Assembly (NCBI GenBank): GCA_041650835.1
Contig: JBAZKL010000001.1
Location: 440,185-504,184 of the forward strand
DNA length: 64,000 nt
Source of the DNA: Candidatus Omnitrophota bacterium
Lineage (GTDB): Bacteria > Omnitrophota > Gorgyraeia > Gygaellales > Profunditerraquicolaceae
Reading direction: 5' to 3'
Shown: piece after piece, positions 20,905 to 58,570 of the stretch
Layout of the letters: the number at the start of each line of letters is the position of its first letter
How positions within the stretch are numbered: the first letter of the stretch is position 1
Program-made: the position numbers and the translations under genes
Notes under the pieces: model-generated
Told to the model about the DNA's origin: nothing
The model's database searches: none
The model's input: only the letters and a program-made list of their open reading frames with translations

Positions 20905-21075
20905 TATATAATGTTAATGATAAAGTCTAAAGTCTAAATAACAAAGGAAGATTAAAGGTTAAAGGTTAAAGGTTAAAGGTTAAAGGTTAAAGGTTAAAGG
21001 TTAAAATTTAATCTTTATTCTTTGAATTTCCTTTGTTATTTAAGCTTTAAACTTTAGACTTAACTTATTATATCT
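20905..21075. repeat. Hairpin interspersed repeat, family A copy, with an expanded (GGTTAAA)7 heptamer tract in the loop
   Basis: Arms gtctaaagtctaaataacaaaggaa ... ttcctttgttatttaagctttaaactttagact flank a 7x AGGTTAA tandem tract at 20953-21005. Confidence 0.85.
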
Positions 21076-21171
21076 GATTCCCGGATGTTCAGATCACCCG
21101 ATCTCCTAATCCCTGATTACCTGTTCTCCGGATAACCGACCGTCGACTATAGACCCGTTGCGACCTGTGCC

Positions 21172-22989
21172 TCAAGCCCTGCCTGTTTCGACTACCATAT
21201 GCTTTATCTTCTTACAGACGGGGTCATTGAGAAGTTCATCTAATGCCGCCGGAAGCGTTAAAGACCAGTTCAGAGGGCTTACCGTGCCGGGAGTATTGAT
21301 CCTATATTGATAGGCATCGCCTTTTAATAGATCGGTAATTCCTAACCAATCAATAAGCAACTGGATAGCGAATATCGAATTTGATTTAAGCGTCAAATGC
21401 AGTATTTTCGAGATGATCTGCACATCAGATTTTTCTCTCATGCACCCGGAAATACCCAGGTGTTTCCACAACTTCTCTTTTTCCCGATACGTGTTCGCGT
21501 ACATATCGACAAAATCCATAACTTCCTCTTTGCGCTTGTTTAAAACCGCCAACAGCTTGTCGACAGAATCGATACTATCAAGCCAGCGCAGCCTCCCGTG
21601 ACGGGAACGCTTATGGTCGAAAAGATCATCTTTAACGCTATGATAATCGATCCAGCGATCCTGGCATTTCCTCAAAAAAAGCGCTTCATCCACGGTCCCT
21701 GCCTCATTTTCCCACCAAGCCGCCCAATTCGTTGTATCATGCGTTGACAACATGGATACGGAAAATAACCGGTAATCCTGCGGCTCCAAGAAATCATGTT
21801 TGACATCCCAATCTTTAACCCAGCGCTGAACTTCATTACCGGGAATACCAAACTCTTTTAACGCCTCAGTACACACCCTTGGAACCACCCCCAGGTCTTC
21901 AGCGCACAAAAGCATCTCTGTATTCTCTAATATCACGGCTAATAGCTTCCTGCCCTGCTCTGCCCACTTACTTTCATCCCTCGGGTCGAAAAAACCATGC
22001 AACCCTTTATTTTCCTGAGGCTCCTGCGCCGGGATACTCCAGATCCGGAATAAACCCACCACATGGTCGATGCGTAAAATATCATAAAAATTCTGGGCGT
22101 AACGCAATTTCTCTTTTAAATACCGGTAACCATCGGCTTCGATCCGCTCCCAATTGTACGTCGGAGTCCCCCAACGCTGGCCTTTTTCACAATACATATC
22201 GGGCGGAGCTCCCGCGGTAAGTTCAAGATTGAAAAATTCAGGATGCGCCCAAACATCTGCGCTGTCCAACGAAACCAGGATAGGCAGATCGCCTTTCAGC
22301 AAAACATTCTTTTGCCGGGCATAAGCCTTGACCTCTTTAAACTGGCCGTATAAAAGCCACTGGGCCCATATTTCGAAGGCGATCTTCTCGGGATGATCTT
22401 TACCGAAACTTTCCAGGGCCGGGCTCTCGCGGTTTTTATATTTCTCTTCCCATTCATACCAGGGGCTACCGTGATGATATTCTTTGAGCGCCTTAAAAAA
22501 GGCGTAATCATACACCCAATAGGCATTCTCTTCCCTGAATTTATCAAAGCCCGCTAAATCATTCTCAGTCTCCAGATTAAAAAGTTCATTTAACAAGCCG
22601 GCCTTTTCGCCTTTTATTTTATAATCCAGATGCTTCTTCCCGCAGGGAAAGGCCTTGCGGATGGCTTTTATCTTTGACTGAAGCGGCTTTACGTCGCCCT
22701 CAGGCATCATCGCAAACGACACATACATCGATTCCAAGGCAAAAGAACTGACGGAGTCATACGGGCAAAACGTACTGCCGACCTCATTCATCGGTAAAAG
22801 CTGCAGGAGCGAATTACCGGTCTTATGGGCAAATTCAACAAGCAGCTTCATATCGCCGAAATCCCCTATCCCCAGGCTTTCTGAAGAATACGCGGAGAAC
22901 AACGGGACTAAGATACCGGCGCGCTTTTCAACACCGGTCTTTTTCCACTTCTCACCCGATAAAGTATTAAAAAAAACAGCTCTCTGCAT
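21172..22989 (-). CDS. malQ: 4-alpha-glucanotransferase (amylomaltase, GH77)
   Basis: The N-terminus reads RAGILVPLFSAYSSESLGIGDFGD. LRIDHVVGLFRIW is a GH77 signature. The start is trimmed to MQRAVFF (22989), because the longer ORF runs into the repeat. Confidence 0.85.
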   Translation of the reverse strand: MQRAVFFNTLSGEKWKKTGVEKRAGILVPLFSAYSSESLGIGDFGDMKLLVEFAHKTGNSLLQLLPMNEVGSTFCPYDSVSSFALESMYVSFAMMPEGDVKPLQSKIKAIRKAFPCGKKHLDYKIKGEKAGLLNELFNLETENDLAGFDKFREENAYWVYDYAFFKALKEYHHGSPWYEWEEKYKNRESPALESFGKDHPEKIAFEIWAQWLLYGQFKEVKAYARQKNVLLKGDLPILVSLDSADVWAHPEFFNLELTAGAPPDMYCEKGQRWGTPTYNWERIEADGYRYLKEKLRYAQNFYDILRIDHVVGLFRIWSIPAQEPQENKGLHGFFDPRDESKWAEQGRKLLAVILENTEMLLCAEDLGVVPRVCTEALKEFGIPGNEVQRWVKDWDVKHDFLEPQDYRLFSVSMLSTHDTTNWAAWWENEAGTVDEALFLRKCQDRWIDYHSVKDDLFDHKRSRHGRLRWLDSIDSVDKLLAVLNKRKEEVMDFVDMYANTYREKEKLWKHLGISGCMREKSDVQIISKILHLTLKSNSIFAIQLLIDWLGITDLLKGDAYQYRINTPGTVSPLNWSLTLPAALDELLNDPVCKKIKHMVVETGRA

Positions 22990-23418
22990 AACACCCCGTC
23001 TTGTTAAGATTATTGAAAAACAATACGTTAATTTTAAAGGATAAAGGTTAAATATCAAAGGAAGGTTCAAGGTTTAAGACTAAAGAATTAATCTTAAACT
23101 TTCCTGCCTGCCGGCAGGAACCTTTATTCTTTGAATTTCCTTTGTTATTTGAGCTTTGAATGAACCATGCCTCAGGCGCTTATGGTTCATTCATCCCGAG
23201 CTCTGTCGAGGGGTTAAACTTTGGACTTTTCCGTCACCCTGATATCCAGAATTTATGTAGTTGGGTTAGGGTTAAGATTTTAGTTTGGTTGTTAGGAATG
23301 GTTGTTAGGTTACTAAAAACCCAACTACTCAACCAAACTACCAAACTAACCGCTTAACCATGACCTAACTACTATTTAGGTCAAACCAAGGAATATACTC
23401 TATCACTTTTTCCTGAAA
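22990..23418. repeat. Composite repeat island: a family A hairpin copy (with CCTGCCTGCCGGCAGGAACC core), plus a GAACCATGCCTCAGGCGCTTATGGTTC...CCCGAGCTCTGTCGAGGGG module, plus GGTTGTTAGG / CCTAACTAC modules
   Basis: It lies between doxX and malQ. The second module recurs at 58491-58560 and, reverse-complemented, in CCCCTCGACAAGCTCGGGG at ~39785 and ~40115. Confidence 0.8.
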
Positions 23419-23814: not shown

Positions 23815-24044
23815 GCTTAACCTCCTGCCGCACAAAGCGGCACACCGGCGCAATCCCGATCTGCGCCGGGTGTAACTTGCATACACATACCAACGCAATT
23901 CCGCGGCAGAAAGCCGCGTACCGGCGCAATTTTGCCGCAGTAAGCGGCATACCCCGCCATTCCAATAAGGCGGGGTGCAATCTGCGCCGGGTGCTCGGCA
24001 TACCCAGCAATCTCATATGCTGGGGTGCTCTTAAGCGTTGGGCG
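23815..24044. repeat. GC-rich structured interspersed repeat, family B, copy 2 (longer, with internal partial duplication)
   Basis: It contains gcaattccgcggcagaaagccgcg, ccattccaataaggcggggtg and ctgcgccgggtg twice. It generates overlapping spurious ORFs on both strands. Confidence 0.8.
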
Positions 24045-39665: not shown

Positions 39666-40170
39666 TCTTAACTCCTTTATTACACTATATTTACTTAGAA
39701 ATAATTATTGGTGATCCGCTTATCCGGGTACCCCAGTCGCCAGAGCCCCAGTCACAAGTCGCAAGACACAGGTCACATGACACCCCTCGACAAGCTCGGG
39801 GCAAGCAAGTAGTCGATAGTCTATAGTCAATGGTCGATAGTCCATAGTTATAGGTTATGGTTAAGGTTAAGATGTTAGTTTAGTTGTTAGGTTAAGGAGT
39901 TGGGTTATTTAACGTTAATGATAAAGTTTAAAGCTCAAATAACAAAGGAAATCCAAAGAATAAAGTATAAAGTTTAAAATTTCCTGCCTGCCGACAAACA
40001 GAAAACTTTAAACTTTAACCTTCCTTTGTTATTTAGCCTTTACCATTTAGACTTAACTTGTCATATACCTAACTACCAATAATAAAGTCACAAGACACAG
40101 GTCGCAAGACACCCCTCGACAAGCTCGGGGCAAGCAAGTAGTCGATAGTCCACAGTCCATAGACGGGAGA
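39666..40170. repeat. Composite repeat island upstream of the helicase locus: CCCCAGTCGCCAGAGCCCCAGTCACAAGTC module, TAGTCCATAG modules, GTTAGGTTAAGG module, a family A hairpin copy (39901-40060), then a ~95 bp segment (40061-40166) that reappears as a direct repeat at 42881-42975
   Basis: Direct sequence comparison of 39901-40166 with 42717-42975. Confidence 0.8.
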
Positions 40171-40436: not shown

Positions 40437-40466
40437 TTAGATAAATCAATGGTTTTGGACTATAAT
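40437..40466 (+). promoter_or_regulatory. Candidate sigma70-like promoter (TTAGAT-18-TATAAT) upstream of a small ORF and the helicase
   Basis: The sequence is ttagataaatcaatggttttggactataat, followed by GGAG and an ATG at 40497. Confidence 0.3.
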
Positions 40467-40654
40467 AGTGATGCCACAACTTATGGAGCGAATGAAATGA
40501 GCGAACATAAGTTGTTTGACCGAACTATCCTGCCGAGTACGTCAAAATTATGGAACAGAATTTTGACGTATCTTACGAGGCAGGATGCATATTCGGTTAT
40601 CGGAGGCTCGGTTATCGCTAACCGAGAACCAAGACCCGAGAACCAATAAGCAAA

Positions 40655-40828
40655 AACTGACAACACCCGGCGCAGATCGCACCCCGCCTTATTGGAATGG
40701 CGGGGTATGCCGCTTACTGCGGCAAAATTGCGCCGGTGCGCGCTTCCTGCCCAGCAAGGACGCACCCAGCATTCCTATTAAGCTGGGGTGCTGCGCAGCC
40801 GAACACCAAGAACCGAGCACCGATAACC
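40655..40828. repeat. GC-rich structured interspersed repeat, family B, copy 3 (reverse-complement orientation), abutting the helicase start
   Basis: The reverse complement aligns with 19990-20150. Confidence 0.8.
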
Positions 40829-42703: not shown

Positions 42704-43333
42704 AAGTCCAGCCATAGGTTAAAGTTTGGGTTATTCAACGTTAATGATAAAGGTTAAAGTCTAAAGAACAAAGGAAATTCAAAGAATAAAGGTTAAATTT
42801 TAAAATTACCTGCCTGCAGGAACCTTAAACCTTTAAACTTTAATCTTCCTTTGTTATTTATCCTTTAGACTTTAGACTTAACTTGTCATATACCTAACTA
42901 CCAATAATAAAGTCACAAGACACAGGTCGCATGACACAAGTAGTCGATAGTCCACAGTCCATAGTTATAGGTTAAAGAGTGGGGTTATTTAACGTTAATT
43001 TAAAAGTCTAAAGTTTAAAAAACAAAGGAAATCCAAAGAATAAAGTATAAATTTTAAAATTACCTGCCTGCAGGAACCTTTAAACTTTAACCTTTAATCT
43101 TCCTTTGTTATTTATCCTTTAGACTTTAGACTTATCTTACTATTTATTATTTTAAACCAAACTCCTTTACCCAACTACTAAACAAACTTCTTTACCCTTA
43201 CCTAACTACCAATATTAAAGTAGCATGACACAAAACACAGGTAATCGATAACGATAAATTTAGGTTTGCGACTTGAAACATGTGACTTGAGACTGGGACG
43301 ATGGGACTCTGGAGACTGGGGCACCCGTGACTT
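42704..43333. repeat. 630 bp non-coding repeat island with two family A hairpin copies (42717-42890, 42967-43140), a direct repeat of 40061-40166, and a reverse-complement copy of the CCCCAGTCGCCAG...GTCACAAGTC module (43240-43330)
   Basis: Direct comparison. It lies between the helicase stop and the Macro-NUDIX stop. Confidence 0.85.
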
Positions 43334-44275: not shown

Positions 44276-44450
44276 GGGGATTGTTTAAATAAAAATTCAA
44301 AGGCTAAAGATTAAATAACAAAGGAATTTAAAAGGTTTAAGGTTAAATTTTAAAATTTCCTACCTGCCGGTAAGCAGGAACCTTTAGCCTTAAACCTTCC
44401 TTTGTTATTTAGACTTTATCCTTTAACATTATCGTATTATAACAGACTTT
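44276..44450. repeat. Family A hairpin repeat copy
   Basis: aaataacaaaggaa ... cctacctgccggtaagcaggaacc ... ttcctttgttatttagactt. Confidence 0.8.
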
Positions 44451-44472
44451 GTGACACCGGTGAGCATCATTT

Positions 44473-45039: not shown

Positions 45040-45089
45040 AAACGCCCTCTCCTGTTTTAAAATATTCTCCTAAAGCTTTTAACCGGTAA

Positions 45090-46055
45090 TTAATAAGAAA
45101 GTGTCACGATAAAATCCTGAAAATCCTTATCACCGCCGCTCCTGGTATCTTCGCAGCCTATGGTGATCTTACGCAAAGAGGTATTCATATAAATCTTCAT
45201 GTGGTCTGAATTATCAGAATTACTGTTTGTTTCGGAATAATAGGTATACCCGGGTCCTTGAGGGGTCGTCATATAAAACCCCACAATTTCACCGCTCTCG
45301 GTGGGAAACGATGCCTTGGCACCTGTTGTATCAGCGCCTTTAAAAAGCTGATGCAGCACTTTATTGCCTGTTGCCGGGTCGATGGTATAATAACCGAACT
45401 TGATCTGAGGGGCCCATCCGGCGTATTCTCCGGTTATTTCCGCGTTTAAAGTCCCGTCAAAAGAGCTGAATTTCTCAATAGAGGTATCCGTACCGGAGAG
45501 CTTCGGTTCACCGGAAGACTGCGGAAGGATGACCGCGCAGCCTCCGACTAATTTTTTCCCGTCTGCTAAAGTAATAAGGTTCTTACTGCTGAGTTGATTA
45601 ATAAAGTCCATAGTGATATCTTTTCTGGACATTCCCAACAGCGCAAGGATAGCGTCATCAATGATCTGTGTCCCGTTAAAATCGCCGGTCAAGGGGTCAT
45701 AAACATAAAAATTACCCGCAGGGCTTTGGTATAACACACTGCTGAGCTTTCTCCACTCGCCGTCAATTACCCCGGGAGCAGCCAGCACATTGATAAAAAA
45801 AGCGTTCGAGGCGGAAGCATACGCGGTTGAAGCAGAATCCAGGATCGCCGGGTACAAAGGAACCCTGCGGTTTATGGTTGATTTAACATAATACGCGTTG
45901 ATCCCCACGCGCGTGCTGGCAATAGCCTGCTTTTCCGCGGCAAGTTGCGCTTCCTGGCGCAAACTCACGATCTTAGGGACGGAAATACTCCCCAAGATCC
46001 CCAGGGAAAGAATAACGATCACTACTTCCAGAAGCGTAAAGCCTTTGTTTTTCAT
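45090..46055 (-). CDS. Prepilin-type N-terminal cleavage/methylation domain protein (type IV pilin/pseudopilin-like with large C-terminal domain)
   Basis: MKNKGFTLLEVVIVILSLGIL is the class III signal peptide / N-methylation motif (G|FTLLE). Confidence 0.7.
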   Translation of the reverse strand: MKNKGFTLLEVVIVILSLGILGSISVPKIVSLRQEAQLAAEKQAIASTRVGINAYYVKSTINRRVPLYPAILDSASTAYASASNAFFINVLAAPGVIDGEWRKLSSVLYQSPAGNFYVYDPLTGDFNGTQIIDDAILALLGMSRKDITMDFINQLSSKNLITLADGKKLVGGCAVILPQSSGEPKLSGTDTSIEKFSSFDGTLNAEITGEYAGWAPQIKFGYYTIDPATGNKVLHQLFKGADTTGAKASFPTESGEIVGFYMTTPQGPGYTYYSETNSNSDNSDHMKIYMNTSLRKITIGCEDTRSGGDKDFQDFIVTLSY

Positions 46056-46171
46056 ACTTTAAGTATAACACAACCAACGACTATTTCCCACACCAGTAGC
46101 GGTATTCGGTGTTCGGTTATCGGCCGGCATGGTCACCGAAAACCGAACACCGATAACCTATAACCGAAAAA
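46056..46171. repeat. Intergenic inverted-repeat element (GGTGTTCGGTTATCGG ... CCGAACACCGATAACC)
   Basis: Related CGAACACCGATAACC / GAACCAAGACCCGAGAACC motifs occur at 40600-40640 and 40795-40828. Confidence 0.6.
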
Positions 46172-46588
46172 TTACTCCCCTATTATCTTGACCAATACCC
46201 GCTTTTGCCTCTGTCCGTCAAATTCACCGTAAAAAACCTGTTCCCACGGCCCAAAGTCAAGCTTCCCCCTGGTTATCGCGGCCACTATTTCTCTTCCCAT
46301 GACCGTTCTTTTCAAATGAGCGTCCCCATTATCCTCGCCTGTCCGGTTATGCTGATACGCGCCTTTACCGTAGGGAGCTAACTTTTCCAGCCAAGCGCTG
46401 AAATCTTTATGCAATCCGCTTTCATCATCATTGATGAAAACGCTCGCGGTAATATGCATGGCATTGACCAGACAAAGGCCTTCTTGCACGCCCGATTTTG
46501 TAACGGCATCATCAATTAAAGCGGTAATATTAATAAATGCCTGGCGGGTTTTTGTATTAAAATTCAAATACTGAGTATAGGATCTCAT
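46172..46588 (-). CDS. YjbQ/UPF0047 family protein (secondary thiamine-phosphate synthase-like)
   Basis: 138 aa with the conserved YjbQ pattern ([14 protein letters not shown] ... HLKRTVMG...). Confidence 0.75.
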
Positions 46589-46590
46589 CT

Positions 46591-47334
46591 CTATCGCGAT
46601 TTCTCCAGTATCAATTTCTTATTAGCGGCATCGATCTTAAAACTGAAATTTTTCAAAAAAGACATCCCCAAAAGCCCGTCTTTCAGGTTGGATTCCATCG
46701 TGGAATCCATAAGCACGGCAACATCGACATTGCGGGCAGACATCCCCTGAACGCTGATACTCTCAACGACAAAATGCCGCGCCTGGATCTTGCGGCCGTC
46801 AGCCACGATCGTTTCCAGGATATCATTCTTATTAACGGCTTTTTGGTCGATTTCCAAGCCAAGCTGGAGAGCGATACTGCGCGAGAGCATGACCAGGGAC
46901 GCGCCCGTATCTAAAATAAGGGAGGCCTGCACTTTATTATTCAACAAGGCCTTGACCACTAACTGTCCGCCGTTACCTTGAAAAACCTCGACATGTTTCG
47001 GGGAAGACTCTTCCTGCAGCCGTAAAGCCTCTGCCCGCCGGGCTGATTCCTCTTTCTGCCTGCCCCAATGCTCATGGATATCAAACGTCTCTTCCGCAGT
47101 AGATCGATAGATCCGCTCTATCTCCTTGCGGTTAAATCCCACGACGCCAAAACCTATCTCCAATTCGACCCGGTCATCATTTTCGCTTTTGATCACTCCC
47201 TCAACCGAGCGGCCGTTTTTAAGATATATCGTATCGGCGCTCGCCTGACGAATAAAACAAAACAGGGCAGCCGACAAGAACACCGCCTCAACGAATAACC
47301 GCACATAGGCGTTTTTCTTTTCCATAAAGATCAT
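46591..47334 (-). CDS. Retropepsin-like (clan AA, TIGR02281-type) aspartic protease, membrane/secreted
   Basis: Signal/TM N-terminus and the D-T/S-G-A active-site motif in [13 protein letters not shown]. Confidence 0.65.
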
Positions 47335-47612
47335 TTAAAATTATAATGCTTCTTCACTACTTCTTTAATATCCCAGACGCACGACAAACCCCGGGGAAAG
47401 CTCACGAAATCGCCCTTTCCAAAACTCACCTTTTCCCCATCGGAAGTTTCCACAACCGCTCTCCCCGAGAGGATATAACACTCCTCAATGCTGTCATAGT
47501 GCCACTTAAACCGGGAAGCCTCTTTTTCCCATACCGGCCAGCTCAAAACTCCGCGCTCATTTAACTCATCCTGCGTCAATTTTTGCACTTTGATTTCCAT
47601 AGGCACCTCCAC
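47331..47612 (-). CDS. Cupin-domain protein
   Basis: 93 aa small-barrel cupin_2-like motif pattern (G..V.W..K...W.Y...E.CYIL.G...V). Confidence 0.55.
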   Translation of the reverse strand: MEVPMEIKVQKLTQDELNERGVLSWPVWEKEASRFKWHYDSIEECYILSGRAVVETSDGEKVSFGKGDFVSFPRGLSCVWDIKEVVKKHYNFK

Positions 47613-47614
47613 GC

Positions 47615-48130
47615 TTAAACCTTATTCTGATAGATCCCCTGATAACCATGCGATGTTTCATTGATGCCCTGAAAAATAAGCTGCACCAGGCGCGCGTTCT
47701 GTTTGATCCTCGCCCCGCGGGTATTTTCAACGACTAACACAAACTCGCTTCTCCCGCTAAAACCCGCGTCCCAAACTCCGGTATGCGTCAAGATCCCCAT
47801 CCGTAAAAGCGAACTCCGGGGAAAAGAAACAGCCAGGATATCTTTAGGCAAAGTTACGGTCTCATTGGTCGTTATTTTATAAATGCCTTTTTTTAAATGC
47901 CACCAGCCGAATTCGTCCCGCTTATTCTTTTTACGGGGAATAACCTCTTTACACGCGGGGAGCTTTCGCTCCTTATTGGAAAAATCAAGGCTTCCAGCCG
48001 AAGAAAACGAATGGATACAGGCGGCAGTCAGGTCGAATCCATTAGGAGTAAGCTGGGTGTTTAAATCGATATACCCGGCAACCAGGCGCTTTTCTTTGAT
48101 CAATTTCCCGATTTCCTGACGATTAAGCAT
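47615..48130 (-). CDS. dCTP deaminase / dUTPase-fold (Dcd family) protein
   Basis: PRSSLLRMGI and VWDAGFSGRSEFVLVVEN...ARLVQLIF match Dcd trimeric dUTPase-fold motifs, 171 aa. Confidence 0.6.
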   Translation of the reverse strand: MLNRQEIGKLIKEKRLVAGYIDLNTQLTPNGFDLTAACIHSFSSAGSLDFSNKERKLPACKEVIPRKKNKRDEFGWWHLKKGIYKITTNETVTLPKDILAVSFPRSSLLRMGILTHTGVWDAGFSGRSEFVLVVENTRGARIKQNARLVQLIFQGINETSHGYQGIYQNKV

Positions 48131-48131
48131 C

Positions 48132-48530
48132 TTATACCCCTTTGATCTGCTGAAGCGCTAATTTCATCCTGACCTCATCCGGTATCGGGCTCGGCTTAAA
48201 GGCCTTATCGATACAAACCAGGAGCGTCCTGGCTTTGGCGATCAGCTGGTTATTCTGATTACGGAGCTCGTTCTCAAACCACATCTTAACACCGGTTATC
48301 TCGGAGACCGAGGTTTTTACCTCCAATATATCCCCGTAAACCGCCGGCAGCTTATAATCGATCTCCTGCCGAGCCACGACAAACAAGATCCCTTGAGCCT
48401 CCAGGTCCTTAATAAACAAGCCTCGCTCCTCAAAATATCCGGTCCGCGCCTCTTCAAGGAACTTCAAATAGTTAGCGTAATAAACAACGCCTCCGCAATC
48501 AGTGTGATGGTAGAAAATCTTTACTTTCAT
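48132..48530 (-). CDS. Acyl-CoA thioesterase, 4HBT/YbgC family (hotdog fold)
   Basis: MKVKIFYHHTDCGGVVYYANYLKFLEEARTGYFEERG carries the YbgC-type catalytic Asp/His context. Confidence 0.75.
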   Translation of the reverse strand: MKVKIFYHHTDCGGVVYYANYLKFLEEARTGYFEERGLFIKDLEAQGILFVVARQEIDYKLPAVYGDILEVKTSVSEITGVKMWFENELRNQNNQLIAKARTLLVCIDKAFKPSPIPDEVRMKLALQQIKGV

Positions 48531-48546
48531 CGTATCAACTCCTTTT

Positions 48547-49695
48547 TTACCCCGATATTCTTTTCATGATAGCGCTGCGCTGTGAATAAGAGATCTTCAT
48601 TTTCTGAACGATGCGCGCAAAAAACTGGATAGTTGAATCATAGGTCTTCAGGTCAACCGGATACGGTGTCGCGTCTTTTCCTCCGTGAGCGAAGGAATAC
48701 CGGGCAGGGTCTTCATGCGAAGCAGGAGCGCCGTAGATCACTTCAGACACCAGCGCCAATGCCCGCATCGTCTTAGGGCCGACCCCTTCAAGCGATAAAA
48801 GTTTCTCGTAATTCTCCGGCTTTCGTTCGCAAACCTTTAAGAGGATCTTCTCCAGATACGCGCTCTTTGAAAAATCTTCCGCTACGACCGGATGCCGGCG
48901 AAATTCCGTATTTTCAAGATTCAGCAACGTTGTCGTAGCGCCCTCTCCGGCAACCGACACCATTTGTGACAGATTCGAAGTATGCTTTCTGATGATCCGG
49001 ATATCTTTCATCAACCCCTGATAACTGCCCTGCACCAGTTCAGTGCTCATCGCGCGGGTCTTCTGGCTGTCTTTAGCGGTAAGGTCCAGAACAGGCACAC
49101 GCACCTGGCTGATAATGCCGGAATGCGGCTCACACACCAGATCAGTGATCTTATTGGAATACCAATGATACCGCCGGGCAGTCTGATTCCCGGTATTCAT
49201 CCCCTGCTGGACAACAGACCAGGTCCCGCCCCGGGAAAAGAAGAAACTATGATGATAGATCTGAAAGCCGTCCTGAACAAGCGCGCTATCTACCTTTGCC
49301 GCCATTTTTGAATTATACACCAGATTATCGACTTTGGGCGTCTGCAGGCTCAGGATATTTCCCCAGTTTTTTATTTCATCGGGGGTCTTACGGGAAGTCT
49401 TTCCTTTACCGCCGCAGATAAAAATACCCAATGTCCTTTCATTACCGCGTATCGCCTCTTTTAAAGCCGCGGTCAGTATCGTCGTTAAACCGGAGGCATT
49501 CCAGTCAAATGCCAGGACCGTCCCCAAAGATTGGAACCAAACAGGATCTGCGATCCTGCGGATGAATTCATCAGGCCCGTATTCCTCGATGATCACTCCC
49601 ATCATCTGCCGCCCCAATGAAACCATCCGCTCAAAAAGCCAGCGGGGGCATTTACCGCTATCTAACGTGAAAGTCGCTATTCCTCGGTGGATCAT
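48547..49695 (-). CDS. Conserved hypothetical protein, DUF763-like
   Basis: 382 aa with an N-terminal ...GKCPRWLFERM... pattern recalled for DUF763-family proteins. No catalytic motif is assignable. Confidence 0.4.
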   Translation of the reverse strand: MIHRGIATFTLDSGKCPRWLFERMVSLGRQMMGVIIEEYGPDEFIRRIADPVWFQSLGTVLAFDWNASGLTTILTAALKEAIRGNERTLGIFICGGKGKTSRKTPDEIKNWGNILSLQTPKVDNLVYNSKMAAKVDSALVQDGFQIYHHSFFFSRGGTWSVVQQGMNTGNQTARRYHWYSNKITDLVCEPHSGIISQVRVPVLDLTAKDSQKTRAMSTELVQGSYQGLMKDIRIIRKHTSNLSQMVSVAGEGATTTLLNLENTEFRRHPVVAEDFSKSAYLEKILLKVCERKPENYEKLLSLEGVGPKTMRALALVSEVIYGAPASHEDPARYSFAHGGKDATPYPVDLKTYDSTIQFFARIVQKMKISYSQRSAIMKRISG

Positions 49696-49898
49696 GGATA
49701 TGAAGTTTAGTGTTACAAAAAAATTTATAAATTACGGGTGCCCCAGCCTCCAGTCGCCAGCGTCCCAGTCACAAGTCTCATGCCTCATATCGCAAATCTA
49801 TAGCTATTTATTGCTATGGACCATGGACCGTAGACTATCGACTACGCGTGTCATGTGACTTGTGTCTTGTGACCTATTTCCCCGGACTTGTCGAAAGC
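49696..49898. repeat. Composite repeat: CCCCAGCCTCCAGTCGCCAGCGTCCCAGTCACAAGTC module plus CTATGGACCATGGACCGTAGACTATCGACTA module plus GTCATGTGACTTGTGTCTTGTGAC
   Basis: It shares modules with 39731-39800 and 43240-43330. It generates the spurious N-terminus (MSCDLCLVT) of the antisense ORF at 49848. Confidence 0.75.
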
Positions 49899-50930
49899 TT
49901 ACTTCTTACTTTTACTTTCTTTTTGTATATATTTCTCCGTGAACGCGATGACCTGGTTCATCATCTCGACTGCCTGCACGGGGTAACGGCCGACCGCGGT
50001 CTCAGCGGAAAGCATCACATAATCCGAGCCGTCGAAAATAGCATTGGCGACATCGCTCACCTCCGCCCTTGTCGGACGGAGATTTTCAACCATGCTTTCA
50101 AGCATCTGAGTGGCGGTTATGACGAATTTACCGGCGCGGTTACATTTTTGAATGAGCTCTTTCTGCCGTACCGGGACCTCATATATCGGCAGCGAAACCC
50201 CCAGGTCGCCGCGGGCGACCATGATCCCGTCGGAAACCTCCAGGATCCCGTCAATATTCTGAATGCCCATGCGGTTCTCGATCTTAGCGATAAGCTTGAT
50301 GCCTTCGCCCGCGCTTCCAGACATGTCCCGCACCCGCGCCATATCAAGCTTCGTGCGCACGAATGACTGCGCGATAAAATCAACCCGGTTTTGCACGCAC
50401 CAAGCGATATTCTCCTTATCTTTCTGCGTAACGCCGGAAAATTCCAGGTTTGCCTCCGGGATATTAACCCCTTTATGGTTCTTAAGCGTGCCTCCCACGA
50501 CAACCTTTGTCTTTAAATATTTACCGCGGCAACTTTGCGCCTGTAAAGCGATAGTCCCGTCATCAATGTATATCGATTGCCCCGGACGGATAACTTTTAG
50601 ATCGCCTTCATAATCAAAAGGAACAGTAAGGGATTCTCCGGTAATTTTTTCTTGAGTCAATAAAACAGTCTGGCCTTTTTTGACCGGCAGGGGCATTTTC
50701 AAGTTACCAAGCCTGATACGATACCCCTCGAGGTCTCCGAGGATCAACAAACGCCTGCGGTATTTCTTATTGATCTCTCTAATTAAAGCAATAAGGCCAT
50801 TTACTTCAGGGATCTTTGCGTGCGAAAAATTCAAACGCAGAACATCCAAGCCAGCAAGCATCATCTGCCTGATAATTTTTCTATTAGCCGAAGCAGGCCC
50901 AAGAGTAGCTATAATTTTAGTTTTTACCAT
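49899..50930 (-). CDS. pyk: Pyruvate kinase, short form lacking the C-terminal regulatory domain
   Basis: [19 protein letters not shown], the K+/Mg2+ site, the [11 protein letters not shown]-like GDLGVSLP motif and EAE...RAE are all present. The protein ends at ~343 aa just after the A-domain, and a stop codon is read directly. Confidence 0.8.
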
Positions 50931-51029
50931 TTTAACCCCTTTTCACGTATAAAGTTATACTATCACGCCCTTAGAGCAGAGGCAATATATTTCAATTTCT
51001 CACACACTATCTAAAACGGAATCGGAGGA

Positions 51030-51165
51030 ACAAGTTAATAACAAAGTCTAAAGGATAAATAACAAAGGAAGCTTAAAGGTTTAATTTTAAAATTTGACCT
51101 TTAAAATTAAACCTTTTTTTGTTATTTAAACTTTTACCTTTAGAATTAGCTTGTCACTCTTATAT
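51030..51165. repeat. Family A hairpin repeat copy (degenerate right arm)
   Basis: aaataacaaaggaagcttaaaggtttaattttaaaatttgacctttaaaattaaacctttttttgttattta. Confidence 0.7.
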
Positions 51166-51214
51166 TTTTATTACGGGGGTAAATCTTCCGAGCAGGGGGA
51201 GGAACTGACATTCA

Positions 51215-51703
51215 CTACATCTCAGAAACCAAGAATGTTTCTTCAATATAAAATTCCAATCCATTGCTAAAATCGACTGTGGGACTTACTTCTTCAAGGA
51301 CATTCAATTCCTCCAACAATGCTTTATCAAACCGCTCGGAGCTGTTTTTCCGATGGAATTGGACGGAAAACGCCATGATCAAGACTAACAGGGAAACTGC
51401 AGGGACAAAAACAAGAGATTTCACGCGGGAGGCGCCCCAAAACCCCGGTTTATACGCAGGCACCAATACTTCATTAAGTTTATCATCAAGCTCGCCTTGA
51501 AATTTCCGCCAAAATTCTTCAGTAGGATGCGGGACACGCTTGCTCCGGGCGATATCCACGACATTCTTGATTTTCATGAGATTATTCCTGCATCCCGAAC
51601 AAATATCCAAATGTTCTTTGATCTGAGCGTGTTCTACCTCTGAAAGGCTGTTATCAAAATAGTCATATAACTTTCTTTTAATCAATAGGCATCTGATCAT
51701 CAT
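51215..51703 (-). CDS. Putative zinc-finger (zf-HC2) anti-sigma factor, single-pass membrane
   Basis: The N-terminal HxxxCxxC motif (EHAQIKEHLDICSGC), a central TM helix and its position directly downstream of an ECF sigma factor. Confidence 0.6.
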   Translation of the reverse strand: MMIRCLLIKRKLYDYFDNSLSEVEHAQIKEHLDICSGCRNNLMKIKNVVDIARSKRVPHPTEEFWRKFQGELDDKLNEVLVPAYKPGFWGASRVKSLVFVPAVSLLVLIMAFSVQFHRKNSSERFDKALLEELNVLEEVSPTVDFSNGLEFYIEETFLVSEM

Positions 51704-51715
51704 ACACCTCGCTTG

Positions 51716-52297
51716 TTAAGCCGAATGAACGGATAATTTACCCTGCAACGCTCTCACCGCCCTGAAAAGATGCACTTTTACCGTTGACAAACTGCATCCT
51801 ATTGTTTGGGAGATTTCCTGGTTTGACAGGCAATTTTGATGCTTTAAAATAAAACACACTCTCTGTTTTTCAGGTAATTCCCCGATACGCAGGTCTAAAT
51901 GACGAACGAATTCCTGTCCGGACAATACACGGGCCGGTTCATTACGCGTATCGGCGATATCCTGCTCTTGCCCCTCTTCATCAAGCAAGGGCCCCGTAAA
52001 ATGCTTATTCAAGACTTTTTTCTTCCTTAAGAAATCGAGGGAACAATTAGTCAGGATACGGTAAAACCAAGTCGCGAAAGCGGAATCTTCCCTGAAATTC
52101 TTAATATTCCGGTAGACCTTTATAAAAGCATCCTGCAAAACATCCTGGGCGTCTTCAGGATTCCCGACAAGATTATAACAAATAGCAAAACCCTGCTGGC
52201 GGTAGCGTTTGACTAAAACATCAAAAGCAGAGCGTTCGCCCTGCTTGAGACGTAGAATGAGCAGCTTTTCTTCCTGCTTATCCGACTCAGTAAGCAT
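51716..52297 (-). CDS. ECF (sigma-24 type) RNA polymerase sigma factor
   Basis: Sigma70 region 2 (AFDVLVKRYRQQGFAICYNLVGN...DAFIKVY) and a region 4 HTH (LSNQEISQTIGCSLSTVKVHLFRA). Confidence 0.85.
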   Translation of the reverse strand: MLTESDKQEEKLLILRLKQGERSAFDVLVKRYRQQGFAICYNLVGNPEDAQDVLQDAFIKVYRNIKNFREDSAFATWFYRILTNCSLDFLRKKKVLNKHFTGPLLDEEGQEQDIADTRNEPARVLSGQEFVRHLDLRIGELPEKQRVCFILKHQNCLSNQEISQTIGCSLSTVKVHLFRAVRALQGKLSVHSA

Positions 52298-52302
52298 ACC
52301 TT

Positions 52303-53220
52303 TTAAAGGGCCCCTTTCTTATCTTCAGCGCGGCCTTTACCCGCGGCTCCGGGAATCTCACCCCTGTTCTGCCTCATCTTTTCACGCCGCCCGGTCATTT
52401 TCTCTTTCAGCTCAGGATGATCATTCATATATTGCTGAAATTTTTCCGGTTCTTCCCGGCGTAACTGACGCAGCTTCTGCAGCTCTTCCTTCTTTTTCAT
52501 GACCTGCTGATATTTCTCAGGATCCTCGGTTTTCAGCTTTTCCAGGCGGTCCTGCATCTGTTTCTGCCGGGTCTCCATGAGCTTTTTATATTCTTCAGAG
52601 TTTTCTTTTTTCAACATTTCTATTCTTTCTTTGCCTTCCTCTAAACGCTGTTTCAATTGCGGGTGTTCATTTAAGTATTGCTTAAACTTTTCAGGATCTT
52701 TCTGCTGTAATTGGCGTAATTTCCTAACCTCTTCCTGCCTTTTCATGATCTGTTGATATTTCTCAGGATCCTCGGTTTTCAGCTTTTCCAGGCGATCCTG
52801 CATCTGTTTCTGCCGGTTATCCATCAATTCTTTGAATTTCTCCGGGTTTTCTTTCTTAAGCTGTTCTAACCGTTGTAAGCGCCTTTCCCGCATTTCCCGC
52901 ATGACTTTCCTATATCTTTCAGGTTCTTTTTGTTTTAAATCTTCCAGACGTTCTTTGATCTGCTTTTGACGCTCTGACACTACTTGCTTAAACTTCTCCG
53001 GATTTTCCTGTTTTAACTTTAACAACTCCTCTTTATTCATCCCTTTATGCTTACCTTTATCCCATCCTTTATGTAGCCCCTTATCAGCAGAACCCTCATT
53101 TGCTTTTACCGCCGCGGAATTCGCCTCATCTGCATAAGACAAAGCCGGCAACATACACAAAGCCATAATTACCACGCCGAGCGCAACACCGTTTAATTTA
53201 GTATTCATCGTATCCTCCAT
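52303..53220 (-). CDS. Secreted low-complexity K/E/Q-rich coiled-coil repeat protein (possible periplasmic stress protein, first gene of an ECF sigma operon)
   Basis: Signal peptide, then repeated units such as (QKQMQDRLEKLKTEDPEKYQQ[IV]MK..EE..KLRQL...PEKFKQY(L/M)N(E/D)HP(Q/E)LK). An underlying ~240 bp tandem DNA duplication is visible at ~52440-52560 versus ~52680-52800. Confidence 0.5.
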   Translation of the reverse strand: MEDTMNTKLNGVALGVVIMALCMLPALSYADEANSAAVKANEGSADKGLHKGWDKGKHKGMNKEELLKLKQENPEKFKQVVSERQKQIKERLEDLKQKEPERYRKVMREMRERRLQRLEQLKKENPEKFKELMDNRQKQMQDRLEKLKTEDPEKYQQIMKRQEEVRKLRQLQQKDPEKFKQYLNEHPQLKQRLEEGKERIEMLKKENSEEYKKLMETRQKQMQDRLEKLKTEDPEKYQQVMKKKEELQKLRQLRREEPEKFQQYMNDHPELKEKMTGRREKMRQNRGEIPGAAGKGRAEDKKGAL

Positions 53221-53289
53221 TTTTGCCCCTCACCTATATTAGACGATTGAACGGTTAGAAAGGTTTACTGAGCTGCCTCGCATATAAAA

Positions 53290-53435
53290 ACACGGTGTTA
53301 ATTTTAAAGGACAAAGGTTAAAGAACAAAGGAATTCTAAAGGCTTAAGGTTGAAATTTTAAAATTTAACCTTAGAACTTAAACCTTCCTTTGTTATTTAG
53401 ACTTTGGACTTTAAACTTTGTTATCAGCTCACTCT
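53290..53435. repeat. Family A hairpin repeat copy
   Basis: aaagaacaaaggaattctaaaggcttaaggttgaaattttaaaatttaaccttagaacttaaaccttcctttgttatttagactttggacttt. Confidence 0.8.
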
Positions 53436-53534
53436 TTCCTTTTCCTAAATTTCTTAATTAATTATCCTATCACAGCATAAATAGGTAAACAACTATTTTC
53501 AAGGTTGCATTCAGAATCGAATTAGTCTATACTA

Positions 53535-54563
53535 ATGGGTATGAAAAAACCTATTCTTAATATTCTTTTGACCGGCATCATCGGTACCTGCCTTATTGCC
53601 GGCGGCGCGTATTATTACACGCTCAGCAACCCCCGGCATTCTTTCTACCAGGTCGCAAAAGCGCTCAAAACCCATGATATCGAACTATTCAATAAGTATG
53701 TCGATGTTGACGCGGTTATCGATGAATGGGTGCTCTGGGGAAGTGAAAAAGCGAAATCAGACCTCAAACAGATAAAGGGCTCGCACGCCAACCCCATAGA
53801 AGACGGCTTTGTGGAACTGCTTATGCCCAATATGCGTTTAAAGCTTAAAGAAGAATTCAAGAAAACGATCGCTGAAAATATCAGGAATTCAAAAGACGGC
53901 TCGATAGCTTCCGGGATGCCTATCATGAGCATGGTCTTCCTCCCGATAAAAACTGTCAGTGTTCAAGGGACTACAGCGGCAATTTCAGTCGATCACCCCA
54001 GGAGTAACGATGAAATCATCTTCAAAATGCGCCGTGTGCGCCGGCACTTCTGGAGAATATTCAGCATCCAAATACCTTCTTTAATGGAAAGAGAGAGAAA
54101 ATTACCCTTACCCCCGGCGCGTAAAGAAACGGCAGAGGCAGAGCCCGAGGCGCCTAACATCCCCGACACCCCGATCGCCCCGGGGATCACCCTCAACAAA
54201 GAAGCTATGGAAATAACCGTCCATCCCCAAGAAACCTCAAAAGTCGCCCAGGAGCGGGAAGATATCCTGACGAAAACCATACTTTACACCGAATATGCTC
54301 AGGCAATAAAGGATAAAGTCACTCAAACAGTCGCTCAGAATTATAAAGGCGCGGAAACCGGCAAAGTCGCCCTGGAGCTGGTCATTCTATCAAATGGGAA
54401 ATTTAAAGAAGTAAAAATAGTGGAAGAGAAATCAGAGGCAAGCCAGAAATTAAAAGATACAGCACTCAGGTCGGCAAAAAATGCCGCCCCTTACCCGGCG
54501 TTCCCCGAAGCATTGCACTCCAGCGAATTAGGCTTTAGTATCCTCATTGCTTTTGAAAAATAA
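53535..54563 (+). CDS. TonB-like protein (N-terminal TM anchor, Pro/Glu-rich linker, C-terminal TonB_C domain)
   Basis: N-terminal TM helix, a linker (LPLPPARKETAEAEPEAPNIPDTPIAPG) and a C-terminus (GKVALELVILSNGKFKEVKIVEEKS...LGFSILIAF) matching the TonB C-terminal fold. Confidence 0.55.
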   Translation: MGMKKPILNILLTGIIGTCLIAGGAYYYTLSNPRHSFYQVAKALKTHDIELFNKYVDVDAVIDEWVLWGSEKAKSDLKQIKGSHANPIEDGFVELLMPNMRLKLKEEFKKTIAENIRNSKDGSIASGMPIMSMVFLPIKTVSVQGTTAAISVDHPRSNDEIIFKMRRVRRHFWRIFSIQIPSLMERERKLPLPPARKETAEAEPEAPNIPDTPIAPGITLNKEAMEITVHPQETSKVAQEREDILTKTILYTEYAQAIKDKVTQTVAQNYKGAETGKVALELVILSNGKFKEVKIVEEKSEASQKLKDTALRSAKNAAPYPAFPEALHSSELGFSILIAFEK

Positions 54564-55220: not shown

Positions 55221-55278
55221 AGGTATTCAAAAGCAGGACAGTGCTTATTCACTCGCACTGTCCTGCTTTGCCCCGATT

Positions 55279-57226: not shown

Positions 57227-57260
57227 AAAGTTTCATAATTTTTCTTCATTACATAAAAAG

Positions 57261-57776
57261 CTATGCGCCGGCAAGCAAATTCTTAAGGGGTTTTCTTGAA
57301 CCGGGGCGTATCTGTTCATCAGGATACCCCAACGCTACCACCGCCATAACTTCCAGATCAGCATCAAGTTTAAGGAAGCCGGCGACTTCCTGTTTTTTAT
57401 TTAATATCTCCCCTAACCAGCATGCGCCTAAACCTAAAGAACAGGCGGCAAGCAGCATATTCTGAATACATGCCCCCATAGCCATCAGGTCTTTATCCCG
57501 GTTATATAAAACCGTGTTATCCATACACACGACGATCACGCAAGGCGCCGATTGGATGATCGCCGCGTACTTGGTAAAACCCAACAAGCCGTCTTTCTGT
57601 TCTTGTCCCTTAATGACTAAAAACCGCCAGGGTTGATTATTTAACCCCGACGGCGCCCAGCGGCCGGCTTCCAGGATCTCAGCGATATCCGCATCCTGCG
57701 GCAGGGAAGCCGTAAATTTCCTTACCGAGCGCCTTTTTTTAATACAATCCCTGGTTTCCATTACTTCGTTTTCCAT
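57261..57776 (-). CDS. Nitroreductase-family protein
   Basis: RRSVRKF...APSGLNNQPWRFLVI is the classic FMN nitroreductase N-terminal signature. Confidence 0.8.
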   Translation of the reverse strand: MENEVMETRDCIKKRRSVRKFTASLPQDADIAEILEAGRWAPSGLNNQPWRFLVIKGQEQKDGLLGFTKYAAIIQSAPCVIVVCMDNTVLYNRDKDLMAMGACIQNMLLAACSLGLGACWLGEILNKKQEVAGFLKLDADLEVMAVVALGYPDEQIRPGSRKPLKNLLAGA

Positions 57777-58342
57777 TGCGATTGGCCTGCCGCATTAACG
57801 GTCTCAAGAGGAGTACCTGCCGGCGCATCTGCCTGCAGGCGCTGCGCGTATATCTTTTGCACCTCCTCAACCGAAGTATTATTCTTCCTGGCAAGGGCCT
57901 GATATATGACCGCCCGGTCGCTGTTTTCTTCGCTCACCAACGCGCTGACACCCTCATCCGCCTGCGCAATGGCGCGTATTTCAACCAATCCCGATCTATT
58001 CTCGCCAATAACCCCTTTTCCTTCCCACTCACTCAACGCAGCACGCCTGTCCCGCCGGCTTATTGCCGCTTTCTCAACTTCAGGAGAAAGCGATTCCTGC
58101 GCGTACGCCGCCCCCACGCGAAGATCAAGCAAGCTCCTGCCGTTGGTTTTTATATCTTTTTGAGAAGCCCCGCCTGTCACTAAATTCTCGATATCATCGA
58201 TATCTTTAGCGACGTGCTGATAAATATCCAGGCGCATGGAGATATCGACTTTAATCGGCTCGCGAGGAGCTTCAACCCGCACCCGGGCACATCCCAGCAT
58301 CACGACAAATATCACTACGGTTAAAACAAGCTGTCTTTGCAT
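57761..58342 (-). CDS. Lipoprotein fusing a YnbE-like (DUF1375) N-terminal module to a YdbL-like (DUF1318) C-terminal module
   Basis: Lipobox (MLGCA). GCARVRVEAPREPIKVDISMRLDIYQHVAKDIDDIENLV parallels E. coli YnbE. The later SRRDRRAALSEWEGKGVIGENRSGLVEI parallels the YdbL consensus (...GwvGEn.dG.l). Confidence 0.55.
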   Translation of the reverse strand: MQRQLVLTVVIFVVMLGCARVRVEAPREPIKVDISMRLDIYQHVAKDIDDIENLVTGGASQKDIKTNGRSLLDLRVGAAYAQESLSPEVEKAAISRRDRRAALSEWEGKGVIGENRSGLVEIRAIAQADEGVSALVSEENSDRAVIYQALARKNNTSVEEVQKIYAQRLQADAPAGTPLETVNAAGQSQWKTK

Positions 58343-58370
58343 GGTTCCTCCTTTTTGTGTATGTTAAACT

Positions 58371-58570
58371 AAACACTGTTAACGTTAATGATAAAGTCTA
58401 AAGGTTAAATATCAAAGGAAGGCTAAAGTTTCAAGGCTAAATCTTAAAATTTAAACTTCAGACTTTGAATTTCCTTTGTTCTTTAAACTTGAATGGGGCA
58501 TGCCTCTGGCGCTTATGCCTCATTCACCCCGAGCTTGTCGAGGGGTTACCCTTTAGACTTAATCTTTTAT
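58371..58570. repeat. Family A hairpin repeat copy followed by the CATGCCTCTGGCGCTTATGCCTCATTCACCCCGAGCTTGTCGAGGGG module
   Basis: It lies between the YdbH-like and YnbE-YdbL genes. The second module is shared with 23161-23215. Confidence 0.8.

Follow-up and report, generated by a model that had tools for sequence, protein, structure and literature searches.

A previously undescribed family of intergenic hairpins built on phased heptads in a narrow clade of Candidatus Omnitrophota

Several families of short palindromic repeats dispersed between bacterial genes have been described, and for two of them, the Correia and ERIC elements, promoter, RNase III and RNase E effects are on record: Correia elements carry outward-facing promoter-like hexamers in their arms and their transcript hairpins are cut by RNase III, and ERIC elements are reported to affect mRNA stability (PMC10969869). 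Others are known by their internal build, with boxB as the internal unit of BOX and a 23-bp minisatellite as that of BrickBuilt (PMC4596501, PMC10969869), or by a sequence signature, such as the GTAG or CGTC tag of REP sequences (PMC3733652). A different kind of repeat, the heptanucleotide repeats of Beggiatoaceae, Cyanobacteria and some Bacteroidetes, has published units such as CCCCAGT, TTGGTCA, CAACAGT and TAACTGA (in part from PMC4679880). The function of these repeats is unexplained, readers of the Csp, S1 or CsrA type have been proposed for them, and TAACTGA-type sets are essentially direct arrays, with one indirect repeat among 170 sets (PMC4679880). Here we analyse a family of intergenic hairpins, the TAAAG family, found in a 64-kb stretch of contig JBAZKL010000001.1 from a Candidatus Omnitrophota bacterium (the window, at its full length).

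The family is real and previously undescribed. Another interspersed palindromic family is in itself unsurprising, such repeats being known in many bacteria. Full-text literature searches brought up no mention of such repeats for Omnitrophota, a phylum of which almost everything known comes from metagenomes, and as far as the searchable literature shows this is the first repeat family described for it. Its members are lineage-specific, non-coding, AT-rich imperfect palindromes of a narrow Candidatus Omnitrophota clade. We read them, with a probability of roughly 0.55, as a non-autonomous dispersed palindromic repeat of the ERIC, Correia or BOX kind that is now under constraint on its heptad phasing. 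The unusually regular build, with TAAAG every seven bases, arms of 28 nucleotides (nt) and conserved mismatches, points to a reader of heptads over a hairpin kept for its pairing, and makes the family a clean comparative system for the long-unsolved role of bacterial heptanucleotide repeats.

Nine intergenic copies of one heptad-phased palindrome

An earlier note on this sequence had listed nine stretches as copies of a single hairpin family, and they do belong to one: all nine can be aligned with one another, and a profile built from them recovers exactly these nine sites in the window, the next match standing at E=0.026. The arm core word AACAAAGGAA occurs 16 times against 0.18 expected from shuffled sequence, and none of 100 shuffles reached 16. 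With copies that align and an arm word so far above shuffles, mere low-complexity AT-richness, one of the grounds on which the note would have given up its claim, does not account for the similarity. [quoted passage not shown]

Every copy is intergenic once two gene starts are corrected, malQ to 22989 and the helicase gene to about 40829. Between 20.9 and 58.6 kb, eight of the ten spacers of at least 190 nt contain copies, and the tightly packed genes of the first 20 kb are accompanied by none. The stretch is no clustered regularly interspaced short palindromic repeat (CRISPR) array, as had also been recognised: spacing varies irregularly from 254 nt to 19 kb, genes lie between the copies, and the copies are palindromic and diverge by 10–35%. 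What calls for correction is the claim of a density far above that of typical bacterial chromosomes. One copy per 7 kb looks comparable to REP- or Correia-rich genomes and not unprecedented, and the density is seemingly lower in a related genome, with about 9 strict-pattern matches in about 800 kb.

The layout emerged when all copies were anchored on the arm core. The GTTAAK terminus comes first, then four nTAAAGn heptads that together span exactly 28 nt. The core ACAAAGGAA comes next, at least two more heptads separate it from the centre AATTTTAAAATT, and beyond the centre the order is mirrored down to an MTTAAC end. In every window copy that has a terminus, exactly 28 nt lie between terminus and core on both sides, and elements of the same architecture, with arms of precisely this length, occupy unrelated loci in three genomes. 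Within copies, lag-7 identity is 0.50 against about 0.25 in coding DNA, as expected of a tandem seven-base unit, and the 28-nt arms mirror each other at their TAAAG/CTTTA blocks in the way of terminal inverted repeats. The organising principle of the family, missing from the earlier note, is the strict seven-base phasing of invariant TAAAG blocks. What had been taken for a variable loop consists rather of further heptads and the conserved centre, and the supposed CCTGCC(GG)CAGG core is an optional nested insert, present in five of the nine window copies and also outside the family.

This insert distinguishes two length classes. The distance from core to core is 67–69 nt in short forms and 84–91 nt in long forms, which carry an extra 12–20-nt GC palindrome, CCTGCC(TGCC)GGCAGG(CAGG), adjoining the centre on either side and regardless of arm type. 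Other variants affect the outer parts of the element: in copies 2 and 9, and likewise in copies of the two other genomes, a GC hairpin module takes the place of one outer arm, copies 3–5 have extra outer heptad arrays of a different unit, and copy 1 has an AAGGTTA expansion that is a sign of slippage. Copies with the GC hairpin module, GAATGAACCATGCCTCAGGCGCTTATGGTTCATTC, fused to one of their ends occur in each of the three genomes. In the second copy of the module both sides of the stem have changed (AACC..GGTT against GGGC..GCCT), the module is followed by CCCGAGCT(n)GTCGAGGGG, and a related motif occurs at 39783–39800 and 40112–40129.

The copies are long imperfect hairpins, as the earlier note had it. 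Folded as single-stranded DNA, eight of the nine do far better than dinucleotide shuffles (z of -5.0 to -6.3), with z at -2.1 for the truncated copy at 58384; folded as RNA, each forms one long hairpin of -40 to -57 kcal/mol. Every element combines one type 1 arm (ACAAAGGAA-ATYCAAAGAATAAAGG) with one type 2 arm (ACAAAGGAA-GRTTAAAGGTTWAAGG), and the three transition differences between the two arm types all read as G.U pairs in one strand and, in its complement, as A.C mismatches. The stem is made up of helices of 4–5 bp (TAAAG/CTTTA) and one 10-bp core helix, split by fixed 2-nt mismatches that recur every seven bases as a consequence of the two conserved arm types. Likewise, because the arms are of two distinct types, complementarity at the variable positions is lower within copies than between them. 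Support from compensatory substitutions, which it had been proposed to look for, was not found in an ungapped arm alignment of 27 copies whose partners were shuffled among copies: paired cells came to 71.1% against 73.2 +/- 0.5% in the partner shuffles, cells with changes on both sides numbered 34 against 51.8 expected, and the covariation score was lower than in 492 of the 500 shuffles. Nothing indicates selection for pairing, and the variable dinucleotides are conserved mismatches.

This lack of covariation tells against the view that the elements function primarily as RNA, that is, through transcripts of one strand that act as structured RNAs, as targets of RNase III or as factor-independent terminators or attenuators, a group that takes in the small RNAs and terminators suggested in the earlier note. 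This view is favoured by the very stable predicted hairpins, by the G.U pairs that the arm-type transitions leave on one strand only, and by the copies that fill intercistronic spacers; yet the stronger-folding strand is sense in some copies and antisense in others, copies are present in divergent spacers, in promoter regions, and no U-tract follows the AT-rich stems, the sole terminator-like matches within elements being overlapping calls at the tip of copy 3. Rfam gave no hit at the gathering score for the whole window, and only chance-level miRNA hits at E up to 1. We consider a primary function as RNA improbable.

Orientation by arm type is mixed in the window (Table 1) and in the other genomes, with no consistent relation to gene strand in either. 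A uniform plus-strand orientation had been suggested by a profile built on the plus strand, which is circular; pairwise tests and arm typing show the mixture. The side of the GC insert was also discarded as an orientation marker, insert side and arm type being at odds in at least three copies. Relative to gene strand or GC skew, orientation is 12:4 by the insert marker and about even by arm type, neither is significant, and the copies are not independent of one another.

Table 1. Copies of the TAAAG family in the window, terminus to terminus after refinement, with features nested in or fused to them (z, single-stranded DNA fold against dinucleotide shuffles)
Feature	Position	Arm-type orientation or strand	Form and context	z
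Copy 1	20913..21064	minus	full element, GTTAAT and CTTAAC termini; between malQ stop (21172) and HAD phosphatase gene start (20864)	-5.35
Heptad expansion in copy 1	20948..21005	+	AAGGTTA x8.3 in tandem, one arm only; TRF, 98% matches	
Copy 2	23027..23157	minus	38 nt upstream of malQ start (22989); GC hairpin module in place of outer arm on right side	-5.01
GC mini-palindrome nested in copy 2	23103..23118		CCTGCCTGCCGGCAGG	
GC hairpin module fused to copy 2	23158..23213	+	GAATGAACCATGCCTCAGGCGCTTATGGTTCATTC plus CCCGAGCTCTGTCGAGGGG	
Copy 3	39914..40057	plus	divergent SNase/helicase spacer; outer heptad extensions at ~39860-39913 and 40058-40110; degenerate GC insert at 39983-40003	-5.66
Copy 4	42740..42882	plus	37 nt downstream of helicase stop (42703); GC insert at 42809-42820; orthologous copy in related genome (L037)	-5.81
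Copy 5	42994..43136	plus	tandem duplicate of copy 4, 254-nt spacing, 90% identity; GC insert at 43063-43074	-6.26
Copy 6	about 44290..44433	weakly plus	between two co-directional genes; ~144 of 197-nt spacer occupied, flanking leader extends to start codon; GC insert at 44359-44378	-6.04
Copy 7	51034..51150		short form, no GC insert, degenerate right core TTTTTTTGT; anti-sigma gene stop on one side, pyruvate kinase start on the other	-5.91
Copy 8	53297..53421	weakly plus	short form; divergent spacer between 52303-53220 (minus strand) and 53535-54563 (plus strand)	-5.43
Copy 9	58384..58490	minus	short form, truncated; outer right arm replaced by GC hairpin module at 58491-58545	-2.11

Distribution, authenticity and insertion

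The topoisomerase I (TopA) of the window is about 70% identical to proteins named Candidatus Omnitrophota or Omnitrophica by their sources, and the same DNA is also deposited at ENA (ERZ27247363, contig k141_1924541, 868,238 nt). When a strict two-arm pattern of 24 bases was run against GTDB, each species represented by one genome, the family turned up in one species representative only, the metagenome-assembled genome (MAG) GCA_964588175.1, which was deposited as 'uncultured Planctomycetales' and has a TopA 94% identical to that of the window. The copies of this MAG are found again in JGI Ga0105098 contigs, and the macro-Nudix protein of a JGI contig bearing them is 88% identical to the window's. 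A metagenome scan led to Ga0265297, with contigs of up to 435 kb, as the third family-bearing genome. IMG/VR viral contigs contained no true family match, and a viral origin was dismissed on that ground. Pattern hits in Alphaproteobacteria, in Balneola and on two other contigs were likewise dismissed, none of them fitting the family profile, and in the Alphaproteobacteria the motif overlaps the ribosome-binding site and gene start. The TopA contigs of relatives (L041 and L042) end short of any repeat site, and the P0123 contig contributed synteny and gap sizes only.

The window comes from a metagenome assembly, and one could ask if its repeats are real. A sister contig of the same ENA assembly (L038, 354 kb) is 99.965% identical to window positions 39833–54275 (14.4 kb, five mismatches, no gaps) and carries identical copies there, plus an extra tandem hairpin copy beside copy 3. 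Colinearity stops within the repeat cluster (window 39833, L038 14443), from where L038 continues into peptidase, PAS kinase and type II secretion genes; this divergence is either a strain rearrangement or a chimeric or assembly join at the repeat cluster, and shows that the repeats can disturb assembly. For the family as such, an assembly artefact, which the earlier note had named as a second ground for giving up its claim, or a product of chimerism or low-complexity AT-richness, has next to no probability: copies recur unchanged along the 14.4 kb common to two contigs, NCBI, ENA and JGI assemblies made independently all yield the family, the motif count far exceeds that of shuffles, and the copies differ mutually, hence are not collapsed duplicates. 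Because it breaks assemblies, and because contigs that are otherwise nearly identical differ in structure at its copies, the family matters for binning and strain comparison.

Comparison of syntenic loci bears on how the copies came to their places. Omnitrophota loci whose macro-Nudix proteins are 58–66% identical to that of the window have the same gene order, and by profile search the family is absent from them. Upstream of the macro-Nudix gene the spacer measures 0–15 nt in these distant relatives and 197 nt, with copy 6, in the window; the convergent spacer after the gene measures 0 nt in L044, 273 nt without a copy in L046 and 630 nt with two copies in the window. Since the family is missing from these distant syntenic relatives, whose spacers at two of the occupied sites do not exceed 15 nt, the copies were inserted into the intergenic spacers. 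The closer relative with the macro-Nudix protein of 88% identity (L037) is without copy 6, its 77-nt spacer holding an unrelated 8-mer array, which together with the extra copy in L038 and the empty distant loci makes presence of the family polymorphic. At the site of the window's tandem pair, copies 4 and 5, L037 has just one copy, which is a mosaic of the two and therefore indicates exchange between copies.

A history consistent with these comparisons would be that the pasting of copies into the spaces between genes took place in the clade's ancestor, the copying itself being established, and that the copies changed later by four routes, namely heptad slippage, tandem duplication, exchange between copies and insertion of a nested GC palindrome, the latter presumably an independent unit of 12–20 nt. 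In family-bearing DNA all arms form close convergent pairs except for one solo arm (L033 11266). It was considered as the end of a parent element and rejected, being part of an internally deleted copy that adjoins a GGDEF gene.

Constraint, rival explanations and other repeats

Conservation of the arm columns was assessed over 106 columns in 21 copies from the three genomes, with 2000 permutations. As many as 52 columns are invariant, against 5.4 expected if mismatches fell evenly, and the column variance is 13.9 against 2.3 +/- 0.3 in the permutations (maximum 3.5). It is the TAAAG blocks and the core that do not vary, and the two positions between blocks are near random. In the orthologous copy shared by the window and L037, 135 consecutive bases (42794–42928) are without a mismatch, next to a helicase gene whose third codon positions are 80.2% identical. 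No grouping of the copies by genome is seen, the best cross-genome match being as good as the best match within the same genome. The invariance could stem either from purifying selection on the phased blocks or from homogenisation by exchange of units or copies. The copies do not behave as decaying neutral relics would: they keep their TAAAG blocks, their core and their arm length of 28 nt unchanged as the dinucleotides between blocks vary freely, and we infer that something may read the phased blocks of each arm.

Such a reader is central to a different explanation, in which the elements are host cis-elements and not selfish DNA, the phased TAAAG/CTTTA heptads, direct in one arm and inverted in the other, serving as a platform for protein binding. 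The candidates would be cold-shock or OB-fold proteins, which take about 7 nt of single strand per domain, or a ribbon-helix-helix dimer on each duplex heptad, and the elements would then be dispersed operators, nucleoid sites or sites for the control of translation or stability. The omega repressor of plasmid pSM19035, a ribbon-helix-helix protein, binds heptad operators. On the single-strand side, CspB binds heptamer repeats with one protein per heptamer (PMC4679880). The block pattern and column counts just given, the exact length of the arms, stem mismatches that are conserved and not compensated, so that arm sequence is kept rather than pairing, the 135 nt unchanged between species, and the closeness of the elements to gene starts are all in keeping with this explanation. 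We nevertheless regard it as unlikely: no candidate protein was identified, distant Omnitrophota have the same loci without the family and the function would thus be recent and dispensable, and copies are found as well in a convergent spacer, a place not expected to have a promoter or a ribosome site. Even without selection, the exchange of units through slippage or gene conversion could hold TAAAG invariant, and the conservation evidence comes from one orthologous pair. A more speculative version, to which we would give somewhat less credit, is that the phased heptads, four to each outer arm of fixed length and set in direct and inverted arrays, are a code bound unit by unit by a protein, either an OB-fold or cold-shock-type binder of single strands or a duplex binder that reads heptads, making the hairpins dispersed switches that couple strand opening to the expression of neighbouring genes; if true, this code would also underlie the other heptad hairpins of Omnitrophota, the Treponema family described below and the heptanucleotide repeats of Cyanobacteria and Beggiatoaceae.

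A third explanation dispenses with copy-and-paste and sees the elements as local by-products of heptamer-generating mutation, through slippage arrays combined with inverted duplication. It is fed by the fresh 8-unit expansion of copy 1 and by the period-7 arrays and heptad-armed hairpins with other units that are present in window spacers and in distant Omnitrophota. Against a local origin, the core region, the two arm types, the centre and the 28-nt arms are common to copies at unrelated loci in three genomes, and subfamilies are common to different genomes. Because core, arm types, centre and arm length are shared in this way, descent from one common sequence is required, and for the TAAAG family we take the local-origin explanation to be very improbable and, on the evidence of shared core and arm types, largely refuted.

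As to effects on the host, copies fill spacers within co-directional gene runs, besides the two in divergent spacers and those in a convergent spacer, and lie about 15–100 nt upstream of the next start codon. Because they fill such spacers at such distances from gene starts, they are probably co-transcribed, which would place the hairpin in mRNA. Transcribed copies would form long hairpins punctuated by mismatches and might serve as punctuation for processing or stability, like ERIC, Correia and REP sequences. Nearly every arm also reads outward as TTGTTA-16 nt-TATCAT/TAAAAT/TAGACT, a weak sigma-70-like arrangement, and this outward TTGTTA-16 nt-TAnnnT of each arm could in principle serve as a weak promoter; as an established role it was rejected, there being no preference for gene starts and little excess over shuffles.

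Returning to the reading of the family as a non-autonomous dispersed repeat under constraint, several observations weigh against it. No direct repeat that would mark a target-site duplication was found at the borders of the unique-flank copies, a check that the earlier note had proposed, and the AT-rich borders could hide very short ones; the polymorphic orthologous spacer of L037 provides no clean empty site. No transposase is present among the scanned ORFs of the window, no two arms bracket a coding element anywhere in the 207 kb of DNA that bears the family (loci outside the window being judged by arm geometry only), and mobility would be deduced from the comparison of genomes. Stronger -10 versions of the outward motif face gene starts 12 times and gene ends 10 times, and regional promoter-like matches are in modest excess (39 against 28.6 +/- 5.6 in shuffles). 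The conservation described above does not look like that of a purely selfish, decaying MITE family, and one orthologous copy pair was compared. No RAYT (Y1 transposase) gene was seen in the annotated stretches. Of the earlier description as a MITE- or REP/BIME-like element, the broad resemblance stands; no target-site duplication, no transposase or same-ended long element within the 207 kb so judged, and no GTAG/CGTC tag were seen.

Hairpins with heptad arms of other units occur in window spacers (7401–7452, 23257–23372, 46101–46158 and 49768–49873), as do heptad arrays (39750–39848, 40062–40172 and 42887–42975), and a locus of a distant Omnitrophota genome that was chosen by its protein (L046) has heptad-armed hairpins at 6390–6466, 7003–7077, 15892–15969 and 20835–20925. 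Their units include TAGTCGA/AGTCCAT, GTTAGGn, GGTnTTC and AGTCACA, and identity at lag 7 is 0.37–0.54 in spacers outside the TAAAG family. Seven is the commonest short tandem period in both the window and L046, and 32 kb of Alphaproteobacteria loci that happened to be sampled lack it. Found in two of the three Omnitrophota lineages sampled, heptad-armed hairpins may be widespread in the phylum, and the TAAAG family is one elaborate member of this wider intergenic class.

A perfect palindrome of 20 nt, CCTGCCTGCCGGCAGGCAGG, is found outside the family. It interrupts an outer heptad flank as a clean insertion of 20 nt (L005 6561), sits at the tip of a hairpin with octamer arms (L046 5404) and lies in a plain spacer (L046 4144); further occurrences are at L001 3090 and 3137 and at L007 131. 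It also occurs twice in tandem and in frame in the kdtA gene of L044 (20178–20218), where a variable loop becomes 6 residues longer. A 20-nt GC palindrome that inserts in hairpin tips and even in coding sequence across distant Omnitrophota behaves as an independent mini-element and is a candidate for a very small mobile element.

A second GC-rich interspersed family, with a core of about 85 nt, is present in the window at 20001–20151 (+), 23905–23993 (+) and 40655–40805 (-) and in L001 at 3009–3090 and 5709–5798. Two hairpins lie within an outer stem CACCGGCGC/GCGCCGGGTG; Rfam gives no match, and apparent compensatory changes are seen (CCGCGGC..GCCGCG against TTGCCGC..GCGGCA, and CCCGCC..GGCGGG against CCAGCC..GGCTGG). 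This family could be a structured RNA or a REP-like element.

Yet another hairpin family lies on Ga0268262 contigs (L011, L015, L016, L022, L028, L030, L031, L032 and L036) that we refer to Treponema, the best matches of the RadA protein of L022 being proteins named Treponema sp. Its arms, (AAATAAC)n-AGGTAAC-AAAGGAAG, surround a GC-rich asymmetric centre of about 55 nt. Homology with the TAAAG family through the shared AAATAACAAAGGAAG was considered and left as unproven, with one nucleotide of similarity beyond the bases that the search had forced.

Two neighbouring genes and the strand composition of the window merit mention. The pyruvate kinase encoded at 49899–50930 (-) has 343 amino acids (aa) and matches positions 2–344 of a 476-position profile, and its relatives have 336–346 aa; because of this, the clade seems to have a pyruvate kinase without the C-terminal domain. 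The ORF at 52303–53220 (minus strand), which heads an ECF sigma/anti-sigma operon and is flanked by hairpin copies 7 and 8, contains an internal 246-nt duplication (52402–52622 and 52648–52868, 78% identical); its 305-aa product has a weak, coiled-coil Rad50-like match and no assigned function. The minus strand carries about 89% of the coding sequence of the window, and each 2-kb bin has a negative GC skew, a pattern repeated in nearly all fetched loci of related genomes, which is a strong replication-linked strand bias.

Relation to known repeat systems

Two analogies were considered and set aside. The RYYYAAC-like words at the ends of the elements recall integron attC sites; they run in the same sense at both ends and are not R''/R' partners, and the flanks are syntenic housekeeping genes and operons. 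A likeness to protelomerase sites was rejected on geometry and gene content.

Among heptanucleotide repeats, the cyanobacterial STRR and the TAACTGA repeats resemble the family in having seven-base intergenic units, often just upstream of start codons. The Omnitrophota unit is nTAAAGn instead, its arrays are inverted around a conserved core, and it is a dispersed family with fixed geometry. REP sequences and BIMEs are, like the TAAAG family, intergenic palindromes, sometimes in mosaic clusters and without target-site duplication, and the nested 12–20-nt GC palindrome has the size and composition of a REP, without its GTAG/CGTC tag. The main element, in contrast, has 110–150 nt and an AT-rich composition, and falls outside the size range of the GC-rich REP of 20–40 nt. 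BOX of Streptococcus pneumoniae and the BrickBuilt MITE of Porphyromonas gingivalis are alike in their modular repeats with an internal unit that varies in copy number, as the heptad does in the 8-unit expansion of copy 1; in the Omnitrophota family, unlike these, the unit has 7 nt and the whole arm is made of units, and there is no sequence similarity.

Correia elements (NEMIS), the MITE of Neisseria, come close in their size of roughly 100–150 nt, terminal inverted repeats, density, and long and short forms set apart by an internal segment, as well as in their location just upstream of genes and the outward sigma-70-like hexamers of their arms. They produce a TA target-site duplication. No duplication was found in the Omnitrophota family, its promoter-like arms are not associated with gene starts, and Correia arms lack heptad periodicity. 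The likeness to ERIC (IRU) and YPAL elements of Enterobacteria, imperfect palindromes of about 127–170 nt, extends to size, the single long hairpin, intergenic position and both orientations, and further to variants with internal insertions and to copies at orthologous sites that are unexpectedly conserved. Unlike ERIC, the present family has phased heptads, mismatches spaced by 7 nt and fixed 28-nt arms, shares no sequence similarity with it and belongs to another phylum; effects on mRNA have been reported for ERIC, whereas the Omnitrophota family is known from DNA sequence. In kind, it is closest to elements of the ERIC, Correia and BOX type.

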